Source: Escherichia coli | Lineage (GTDB): Bacteria; Pseudomonadota; Gammaproteobacteria; Enterobacterales; Enterobacteriaceae | DNA: 64,000 bases | Reading direction: 5' to 3' (one strand) | Assembly (NCBI RefSeq): GCF_041248615.1 | Contig: NZ_CP158426.1 | Part shown: positions 36,001 to 42,507 of the stretch, one piece after another | Numbering within the stretch: position 1 is the stretch's first letter | Layout: each line of letters starts with the position of its first letter | Made by a program: the position numbers

Positions 36001-39000
36001 CGGGAATCCATTGAAATCAAAATCACCGATGACAGAATCAGAAGCGTTCCCAGCCAGTCCGGTAATGTGAATGTGATCCCCAGCAACAGCAAAGAGAGCA
36101 GCGCGCTACTTAATGGTTCTGCACAGCTCAAAATGCTGGCTTTTGGACCGCCAATTAATTGTGCTCCTTTCAGGTACAGACTAAATGTCAGGGACGTACC
36201 AATGACCACCAAATAAAAAAACGCCAGAATCAAACTGCCGTTAACGACAAAGTTTGTCCCTTGTCTGGCATAAAAAGGCAACAGAATCAGACCGCCGATC
36301 AGCATACTCCAGCCGACGACAGGCAACGTGCCATAGCGGGCAATTAGCGTTGAGGGATAGGTGGTATAGAATGCCGCAGCAAATGCCGAGGCAATGCCCC
36401 AGAATAACGCGGCAGGAGAGATCGATAATGACGTCGGATTACCGTGTGTCACCAGTAAAAAAGTCCCGACCAGCGATGTCAAAATAGCGCAAAAAACCAG
36501 AATGCCCGGGCGGGATTTACGCACCAGTGAGAACCAGGCGACGATAATCGTCGGTGAGAGGAATTGCAGCACCGTTGCCGTGGCAGCATTCGATTTTTCA
36601 ATGGTCAGTAAAAAGGTGAGCTGTACGGTTAGCGCGCCAACCACGGAAAAAATCAGCAGACTAATGGCATCTTTGTGATTGTTAATAATAGAAAAGATTT
36701 TATCGCCATGAACAAATGACAGCGTCAGCAGAATCAAACCGGCGAATATCAAACGCGTCATAGTCAAAAACTGCGACGACATCTGGCTTTGCTCCATGAT
36801 GTATTGCGCGCAGACCCCTGAACTTCCCCACAACACGGCGGCAATCAGAACGTTCAGCATCCCCTTTCTGGTGGAACCCATTTTTCCCTCTGCATACTGT
36901 TTTGTCGTTTATGTATGCAGGCATGATAGCAAAAATGGCGAGGATGGCTCTGTTTGCGCCACGCCGATTTTTCTTAGCTCAGACTGGTGAGCTAAATATC
37001 TTTAATAAACAGCAGGCAAATCATCGCAATACCCAACATCCCTATCGCCAGCCAGAACAACGCGTGGTAGCTCCAGATTTCAACCATAATTCCGTCAACA
37101 GAGCCGGCGATAATCCAGCCGACGCGTGAAGTATTTGCATATAACGTTGTCGCAGAGCCTATTTTTTCAGGCATCAGGTCCTGAAAATAAAGCATGCCGA
37201 TACCACAGAGAATACCAAGGAAGATGGCATTTAGAATTTGCAATTCCAGCTCAACTGCCGGAGTCGTCGCCATGAGTACGCTGGCGTAAAAACACATTCC
37301 ACTCACGATAGCAATGAGCATTAATAGCCGCTTGCCAATACGTTTCATGTAATAGCCTGCGATTAACATCATCGGAATTTCCAGACCGGCAGCAATACCA
37401 ATCATTTCTCCAGCCAGTTTATCGGTTAGATGCAGTTCATCAATAATAAATAGCGGCATATTTATCATGTAGAGATTATTCGCCGCCCACATCATTGAAC
37501 AAACCACGAAAAGTAGCCGTGTATCCCGCTTCCTATGGGTGGAGGGTAAAATTTCTACGGGTTGGGTAACGACAGGAATATTTCTTTGTATTGATGGCAA
37601 AAACAACCAGACTATCAGCCCGCAAACAACAAATGCGATGGCTGCGGTGAGATACATCACTTTAAAACTAAATCCCATTGCCAGTTCATAAGCGAGCGGT
37701 GGCCCGATAACCCAGGCAAGCGAGATCTGAGCACGTAAAAATGTACTGAACATTACCGTCTCACGGCCTGTTCTGTCGGCGTGTTCACGGGCGAGGGCGA
37801 ACATTTGCGGGTTTGCGGTGGAAGCAAAACTACTCAGAAGTACGCCCGTTGAGAGCAGAATGAAGTAGTTGCGATTCCACGCAAAAAGCGTGCAGGCCAG
37901 CACTCCAAATAAGCAACATAGCAGAATTAGTAATTTACGGTCGCCTTGTTTATCGGAGTGCCTTGCCAGAAATTGACTGACCAGAATCCCCATAATAGCG
38001 CTACCGGTGAAGAAAAAACCTACCATTATAGGACGGGCTTTCAGTTCATCTGCGAGGAATATACTTAGGGTAGGAGTCTGAAGAGCGCCCGCAATACCCG
38101 TCAGAAAGGCGACAAGTAAAAATGCCGCGGCAGTGAGATCAAGTATTTTTGATGGAGTGGTAGCCGTTTTTTGCATTCTTCTGAATCACCGGGCGACAAA
38201 ATATAACTGAGTTACAAATAAGTACCAGTCGAATGAGTATTGTATTAAGAATTTTTGAGTATCGCTGATACAACCAGAAAGCAATGCTAGCGCAATATTA
38301 TAGGGCCAGCAATTGAGATTATTAGCAAAAGCATGTTAAGAATTAATCACCGAATTTACATATTAATTATAGTAAGGCAATGAGCTATTTTTGATAGTAA
38401 AAATAAAACAAGTTGATTTGATATGTTAAATCAAAAAATTAATCTTGATGGCAGTCTGATTATTGGTGAAGTTTATAGGTCAGTTTTTTCGTCAGCGGTT
38501 AAAGAAATAGAATAGTCGTATAAAAAAGGGTGTGCAGAAGCGTGTAAAACAACATCTTCACCTTAATGGCGATACAGTTGGCTGAGAGTCAGCAGGGGGC
38601 AAATCACCTGCAAATAAACACGGCACATGCTGGCGCGCATATCGCGGATGCGTTCGAGGACAGAAGAACCGACAGGCGGATTCTTCAGCAGCTCATCGTC
38701 CATCACAAAACCTTTGACCAGGTATTTCTGAAACCGATTGAATATTGAGCAGTAGAAAATATCTGGATTGACAGTATTACGAGGGGTTGGAGAACGTATG
38801 AAGAGGCATTTTGGCGGAGATCACAGGAGTCGAATATGAGTGTTAATGTTTTGATTTTAAATGATTAATCTGTGTTGGATAAATGAGTAACCCCCATAAG
38901 AACCCCCAAATAACTTTGTGTAAGGGAATGAAGCTAAAATACACAATCGAATCAATTCTTAGAGCTTTATTATGAAGGTAACACTCCCGGATAGTGTTTC

Positions 39001-42000: not shown

Positions 42001-42507
42001 AGCTGCTGCATTGTCCCTGCCTCCATTCAGTCGATGATGCGCATAATGGCGCTGCATTCCGGATGCTGCAGGGCATAATCCCGCAGCCGGTAATAATGAA
42101 CCGTCATGGCATAATTCTCTGTACGACAGGCGTGATGGCTGTACGCCATCAGACAGGCGGCAATGCCGGCGGCTTCCGGGCTCATTTCAGCGCGGTTACC
42201 GTTCATGACGTTAAACAGCACCCATGTTTCGTCATCATCGTCATCCGGTTCAGGTGCCATAAATGCGCCACCGTTGTTCAGGGTGTACAGATTCCAGATG
42301 CCCCCGCAGTAGTCTTCGCACAGACGGTCCATCCAGCCGAAGACACGGGGCTCCAGGGTCACCCACTGTGGAATGAGGCCAAAATGCTGCGGCCAGAAGC
42401 TGATACGTTGTTCATCAGGGACGGGAGTAGCAACCAGTTGGGGCTGGTTATTCCCTGGTGCTGTGGCTGAAGAAAGAGCAGTTGTGTTCTGAGAAACGAT
42501 TTTCATG

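Follow-up and report, generated by a model that had tools for sequence, protein, structure and literature searches.

The toxin CbtA of Escherichia coli K-12 blocks polymerisation of both FtsZ and MreB, and the contacts are separable, F65 being needed for that with FtsZ and R15 for that with MreB (PMC5624674). It is neutralised by its antitoxin CbeA without binding between the two proteins, and the genes of such pairs are separated by a spacer of 88 nt in CP4-44, an element without integrase, and of 20 nt in CP4-57 and CP4-6 (PMC5371832). According to published work, the CP4-57 genes lfgABCDE make up a single operon whose promoter is upstream of yfjX, and LfgB was reported to cleave MqsA (PMC10846083). 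A longer series, orf46-orf56, is known from the Shigella resistance locus (SRL) island of Shigella flexneri, with the order GTPase, (Ag43), DUF932-type, YfjX/KlcA, YeeS-YeeT-YeeU-YeeV-YeeW, DUF957 and DUF4942, and homologues L0007-L0010 are named in a table of the same paper (PMC6980539). The present study concerns a related set of genes at 38970-42506 of a 64,000-nt stretch of E. coli DNA (RefSeq assembly GCF_041248615.1, contig NZ_CP158426.1), the whole of which is referred to here as the window. With a probability of about 0.9, the region represents the conserved distal module of an island with a P4-type integrase at selC, and the core of the module is a CbeA/CbtA pair of the CP4-44 lineage.

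The annotation was taken from RefSeq record NZ_LT599825.1 (E. coli NRZ14408), which is 100% identical to the window and was covered from 32001 to 142000 (110 kb); position x of the window corresponds to position x + 32000 of the record. Seven open reading frames (ORFs), all open and all on the minus strand, span 38970-42506, and the same genes were called in the RefSeq annotation. A preliminary description, made from the sequence alone, had named these genes, their order and these limits, which match the gene ends from ORF calls and Pfam exactly; its list of seven genes was right but missed DUF957. The features are as follows.

38970-39812, minus strand: DUF4942 protein, 280 aa (PF13708, E 1e-69), the last gene of the island
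39897-40319, minus strand: YeeW-like ORF of 140 aa (DUF5983_N, PF25638, E 3e-28)
39897-40094, minus strand: DUF957 coding part, 65 aa (called by PGAP), in the same frame as the DUF5983_N segment 5' of it
40316-40693, minus strand: CbtA-family toxin, 125 aa (PF06755, E 3e-63)
40783-41151, minus strand: CbeA/YeeU-family antitoxin, 122 aa, with a GTG start (PF06154, E 2e-54)
41227-41448, minus strand: DUF987 (YeeT-like) protein, 73 aa (PF06174, E 1.5e-40)
41535-42011, minus strand: RadC-like JAB/JAMM (YeeS/LfgB-like) protein, 158 aa (PF04002, E 5e-44)
42027-42506, minus strand: ArdB/KlcA-type antirestriction protein, 159 aa, complete ORF (PF03230, E 5e-37)

Pfam alignments covered the full length of the models for the module proteins, with the exception of the YeeW-type ORF, in which only DUF5983_N was matched, and the scores lie far beyond chance. 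The CbtA_toxin profile, for example, was covered from 1 to 112 of 112. Matches to solved structures were found for CbeA (the YeeU structures 2H28 and 2INW, E 1e-76), for the antirestriction protein (2WJ9, ArdB/KlcA-type, E 1e-98; KlcA 2KMG, E 3e-20) and for the RadC-like protein (2QLC), and the latter contains the metal-binding motif HNHPSGx7D, of the HxHx(7-10)D type (HNHPSGEVIPSKAD in translation). No NCBIfam model was found for the module proteins, RadC excepted, and PADLOC gave no defence-system match among the seven.

The assignment of the toxin-antitoxin (TA) pair to the CP4-44 lineage is based on both identity and arrangement. CbtA is 88.7% identical to K-12 CbtA over 124 aa and CbeA 91.0% identical to K-12 CbeA, while the values for the other CP4-44 proteins are 97.3% (YeeT), 95.3% (YeeS) and 75.8% (YeeW, over 62 aligned residues), so that the kinship with the K-12 families put forward in the preliminary description was borne out by protein alignment. 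The gene cbeA is directly upstream of cbtA, both on the minus strand, and the spacer of 89 nt between them is of the CP4-44 type. In CbtA, F65 is kept in the context ...DAVNFLVEKY..., and of the 14 positions at which the protein differs from K-12 CbtA, 11 lie within residues 6-27. The exact CbtA allele was present on at least 1000 contigs. Judging from the K-12 homologues, CbtA would bind FtsZ and MreB and thereby block division and elongation, and CbeA would neutralise it without binding. The pair, situated beside the attachment site, probably helps to keep the island in place, and ArdB, by analogy with its homologues, would shield incoming DNA from type I restriction. As in CP4-57, the genes from the antirestriction gene to cbtA may form one five-gene operon whose transcription starts upstream of its first gene.

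The gene following cbtA is truncated. The start of the 140-aa ORF overlaps the cbtA stop by 4 nt, and its product consists of the DUF5983 N-terminal domain (approximately residues 1-57), a linker and DUF957. In an alignment with the intact locus of E. coli AVS0068, about 280 nt fewer were present, the C-terminal domain of DUF5983 (PF19419) being deleted; the remaining DUF5983 frame enters DUF957 in frame, which accounts for the 140-aa ORF. PGAP called a DUF5983 pseudogene and a separate DUF957 coding sequence instead, and the DUF957 part matched no Pfam or NCBIfam model. The exact 140-aa protein was called on 892 contigs, indicating that the allele is common. The YeeW of K-12 has the same short DUF5983 form, with the tail TETPAT.ASPHQL, but yeeW stops after 64 aa, whereas here the frame reads on into DUF957. 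The copy beside cadC in AVS0068, on the other hand, encodes a full-length DUF5983 protein (162 aa, both domains) and a separate 65-aa DUF957 protein.

The position of the module at an island edge, also proposed in the preliminary description, was confirmed by a partial copy of selC followed by K-12 sequence.

38812-38834, minus strand: distal att-type direct repeat, 23 nt, repeating the final 24 nt of selC less one deleted nucleotide

This repeat is reached 135 bp past the stop codon of DUF4942, and beyond it is the selC-setC spacer of K-12 (96% identity) and then setC; the distal boundary of the island is at 38834/38835. Within this conserved spacer, outside the island, the sequence at 38605-38730 annotated as 'RhuM family protein, partial' is the K-12 pseudogene yicT. 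No tRNA was found within the window by ARAGORN. The gene selC itself is at 121487-121581 of the record (window-equivalent 89487), outside the window, and 300 bp from it is a gene for a 394-aa integrase with Arm-DNA-bind_3, Phage_int_M and Phage_integrase domains, which is 40% identical to IntA of CP4-57. The earlier statement that the element occupies selC was thus correct, with selC and the P4-type integrase 50.65 kb away; because both are seen only outside the window, occupancy of selC is unprovable from the window alone.

Since selC and 38812-38834 are the only two selC-derived repeats in the 110 kb, there is one island of 50,652 bp, of which the module is the distal end. The same fact argues against the module being the end of a second, tandem element separate from the island with the selC integrase. 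Such an arrangement could be suspected because the backbone is interrupted, with unrelated cargo between the module and the GTPase/WYL genes. However, in E. coli strain 135 the module runs without a break into the backbone of DUF932, DUF905, WYL and GTPase genes, and the interruption in the present strain is fully explained by an inversion between copies of ISEc31 and a 1.8-kb deletion (see below). We therefore consider a tandem element hardly credible.

The cargo of the single island, according to the annotation, comprises phosphotransferase system (PTS) sugar systems, a transketolase, a TonB-dependent receptor, autotransporters, a YadA-like adhesin and at least six insertion sequence (IS) elements or fragments. 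The question then arises whether the module could be part of a true P4-like satellite prophage rather than of a non-phage island. A P4-type integrase adjoins the tRNA gene, the island has genes for an inovirus Gp2 family protein and for a small helix-turn-helix (HTH) regulator, PHROG families match several of the module proteins, and the K-12 relatives have been termed P4-like cryptic prophages (PMC5371832). However, the PHROG matches are limited to antirestriction, RadC and unknown-function families, the annotation of the 50.65 kb lists no phage genes for structure, packaging or lysis, and the cargo is of the metabolic and adhesin type, with the IS elements or fragments mentioned above. Homologues of P4 alpha primase, sid, delta or psu do not occur by name among the RefSeq gene calls over these 50.65 kb, although no dedicated profile search was made for them. 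A satellite prophage is very improbable, and the element is instead a genomic island of mosaic make-up that carries metabolic and adhesin genes as cargo.

The identity of the island with AGI-3 of avian pathogenic E. coli (APEC) BEN2908 was also considered and is unproven. AGI-3 carries the fos locus, and in this comparison, made by annotation alone, no fos-type genes (major facilitator superfamily transporter, GH32 hydrolases, fructokinase) were found in the annotation of the selC island. Close homologues are named 'Aec78' or 'Aec79' in some sources, which is the sole hint at AGI-3 and an unproven link; a literature search on these two names returned nothing relevant.

The upstream side of the module has been reshaped by ISEc31, and two further features adjoin the antirestriction gene.

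42508-43765, minus strand: ISEc31 (IS3 family) copy A, 1258 bp, co-oriented with the module
43766-44693, minus strand: fragment of a DDE transposase pseudogene, at the left end of the inverted segment, its other half being beside ISEc31 copy B

The end of copy A is 1 bp from the antirestriction ATG, and the stop codon of its orfB is 9 nt upstream of that ATG. Copy B is inverted and 100% identical and is at 104982-106239 of the record, outside the window. The native Shine-Dalgarno sequence AAGGA, present before the antirestriction ATG in strains 135 and AVS0068, is gone here, together with about 250 bp of the native upstream DNA of this gene. In total, 1,800 bp are missing in comparison with strain 135, whereby DUF932, DUF905 and the native promoter region with the ribosome-binding site were lost. 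The uninverted order in strain 135 is antirestriction, hypothetical, DUF932, DUF905, IS, WYL and GTPase, the hypothetical between antirestriction and DUF932 being a small opposite-strand ORF; there, too, an IS occupies this site, where it lies within a hypothetical gene and is flanked by a CCT target duplication. For these reasons the earlier claim that the genes appear intact was sustained only in part: all the ORFs are open, but PF19419 is missing from the YeeW-like one, and the antirestriction gene is without its native upstream region.

Neither ISEc31 copy proved to be bounded by a direct target-site duplication of its own, since copy A has the flanks ATG/TTA and copy B the flanks AGG/TAA. 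When copy B is viewed in reverse complement, the flanks in NRZ14408 read ATG-A-TTA and TTA-B-CCT, and the cross-pairing of TTA with TAA points to an inversion; the 1.8-kb deletion took the CCT partner with it. An 800-nt junction, reconstructed by joining the TTA/TAA flanks with one duplication copy removed, recurs as one continuous, 100% identical stretch in at least 130 other genomes, and therefore a segment of 29,216 bp (75766-104981 of the record) is inverted between the ISEc31 copies. The inverted segment begins at 43766 of the window and runs past the window end, and the inversion separates the module from the GTPase/WYL backbone. The ISEc31 flanks and target-site duplications fit one deletion plus one inversion. 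Among 5426 complete genomes, only NRZ14408 has ISEc31 joined to the antirestriction ATG in this way, which indicates that the event is recent.

The sole Rfam match in the window was isrC (RF01387, 150 bits) at 43575-43697 on the minus strand. This match was rejected as the isrC locus of CP4-44 or as a part of the module, since it is inside the orfA coding region of ISEc31 and thus reflects IS3-family transposase sequence and not an independent small RNA locus.

Several observations weigh against the reading of the region as a module with an active CP4-44-type pair at its core. Codon 15 of cbtA (40649-40651) encodes Cys, where K-12 CbtA has Arg, and the substitution R15C in K-12 CbtA abolishes MreB binding (PMC5624674). 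The operon structure is extrapolated from CP4-57 to a module of the CP4-44 lineage, and a role of the TA pair in island maintenance is only inferred. In a consensus scan, no sigma-70-like promoter was found on the module strand within 38700-43900, and the antirestriction ATG is now without a Shine-Dalgarno sequence. The first of these points is tempered by YpjF and YkfI, which naturally have C15 and still act on cell elongation (PMC5624674); R15 is specific to the K-12 CbtA allele and does not define the family. The presence of C15 instead of R15 nevertheless makes the action of the present CbtA on MreB uncertain. As for the promoter, the native upstream region of strain 135 likewise contained no sigma-70-like site in the scan, and thus the scan cannot locate the promoter in either strain.

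With ISEc31 now replacing the upstream region, read-through from the transposase gene or internal promoters would be needed to express the first gene at the least, and probably the operon as well. Given that a promoter-like site and a Shine-Dalgarno sequence are both lacking, the operon may be poorly expressed or silent. In the extreme case the module would be a silent relic, unexpressed since the IS-associated deletion and without current function, whose ORFs are fossils heading for decay. This would agree with the replacement of the upstream DNA to within 1 bp of the ATG, with the blank scan of the minus strand, with the truncation that DUF5983 has already undergone, with the heavy degradation of the island by IS elements and pseudogenes, and with a junction unique among the genomes compared and hence recent. 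However, all ORFs are open, and the module is 98.6-99.0% identical at the DNA level to those of the closest other genomes, which are without an IS at the antirestriction gene. From RadC onward, the genes also retain recognisable Shine-Dalgarno sequences. Read-through is possible as well, since the transposase gene is co-oriented, its stop is 9 nt before the ATG, and no terminator-like site was found between them in the scan. A recent event would leave no time for decay, so that sequence alone is not decisive, and we regard the silent relic as possible but with the odds against it. The interpretation of the region as a conserved distal module is preferred.

The function of DUF4942 invites a more speculative view. 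In longer homologues a C-terminal S-adenosylmethionine (SAM)-methyltransferase domain is added, and the fold of DUF4942 is confidently predicted, without a solved structural relative; no published functional study of DUF4942 was found among the literature searched. Elsewhere DUF4942 forms the N-terminal half of SAM-methyltransferases. Two further readings are improbable: that the stand-alone DUF4942 protein at the island end is a trans-acting DNA-modification or anti-defence factor working alongside ArdB, and that the TA operon has been captured by ISEc31. If the former were true, the module would be an entry and anti-defence kit around the TA pair; if the latter were true, the levels of toxin and antitoxin would track transcription of the transposase.

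The module family is widespread and shows the signature of constraint. The DUF957/DUF5983 part was matched in 4718 of the 5426 complete E. coli genomes (approximately 87%), at a median of 2 places and up to 10, and part of the query is matched at 7 places on the source chromosome. In 644 of the 5426, the module is contiguous with the selC-setC spacer, on the setC side. In comparisons with two other copies, from which the DUF5983_N segment was left out, dN/dS was 0.06-0.23 for all seven genes, indicating that the module family is under purifying selection. The module is already known and is very common at the ends of tRNA-inserted islands of E. coli, and the new details are either specific to this strain (IS capture, deletion, inversion) or minor (the DUF5983_N-DUF957 ORF and C15 of CbtA). 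The findings are of little importance beyond annotation. They identify the island type as the common P4-integrase scaffold with variable cargo, and the ISEc31 inversion and deletion are relevant to work on island stability or on CbtA/CbeA expression in NRZ14408.

Other features were noted in the window. Within the inverted segment, a 61-aa PemK/MazF-like fragment is found at 45355-45656, and the annotation of 45827-63830 includes a ugpB-like binding protein, a phytase-like esterase, an RpiR regulator with a PTS IIC component and an N-acetylmannosamine-6-phosphate (ManNAc-6-P) epimerase, a c-type lysozyme inhibitor, a YadA-like adhesin, a split transketolase, an ascorbate-type PTS, a LacI regulator and a frameshifted ProQ/FinO gene. 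At 1435-4898, a low-GC insert (approximately 34%) between ilvN and uhpA forms an orphan two-gene islet, with ORFs of 160 aa (2510-2992) and 489 aa (3268-4737), both annotated as hypothetical and neither with a Pfam or PADLOC match. A RelE-family toxin (PF06296) with an HTH/MqsA-like antitoxin is encoded on the minus strand at 13910-14570, as an insertion between yicN and nepI. A low-GC island adjoins yicS at 16188-34331, in which the annotation includes IatC, an inverse autotransporter, EilA, a HilA-like regulator, and a type III secretion translocon set composed of an IpaD/SipD-like tip protein, a YopB/SseC-like subunit and a SycD-like chaperone.

Among the K-12 elements, CP4-44 is the closest relative, and its DNA is 89% identical to the module over 1.9 kb, from inside yeeS to yeeW. 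The series yeeS-yeeT-cbeA-cbtA-yeeW of CP4-44 shares gene order, strand and the 4-nt overlap of cbtA and yeeW with the present module. However, CP4-44 has yeeR upstream where the present module has the antirestriction gene, its DUF957 is partly deleted and its DUF4942 is absent. The homologues in CP4-57 and CP4-6 are more distant (61-82% protein identity); the antirestriction protein shares 69% identity with YfjX and YafX, and the RadC-like protein 75.7% with YfjY/LfgB. In both lfgABCDE of CP4-57 (yfjX-yfjY-ypjJ-yfjZ-ypjF) and yafX-ykfG-ykfH-yafW-ykfI of CP4-6, the same five-gene order is found, with the antirestriction gene first, and the series adjoins the attachment site. Neither has YeeW, DUF957 or DUF4942 genes after the toxin gene, and, unlike in CP4-57, the promoter region of the present module has been replaced by ISEc31. 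The synteny with CP4-44 and CP4-57 asserted in the preliminary description therefore holds for the shared core order, but not for the DUF957-DUF4942 end, which was not found in CP4-44, CP4-57 or CP4-6 of K-12.

More complete counterparts of the module are found outside K-12. The copy beside cadC in AVS0068 is 91% identical at the DNA level from the antirestriction gene through DUF4942, although it is at another chromosomal site, and it has kept DUF932 and DUF905 upstream of the antirestriction gene. L0007-L0010, the homologues listed for the SRL island, we take to belong to the selC-side element of the enterocyte effacement locus (LEE) of O157:H7. In a comparison by gene order alone, the full order of the module fits the SRL island of Shigella better than it fits the K-12 elements. 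The SRL island is at another tRNA site and has other cargo, and its order is also that of the uninverted E. coli strain 135.

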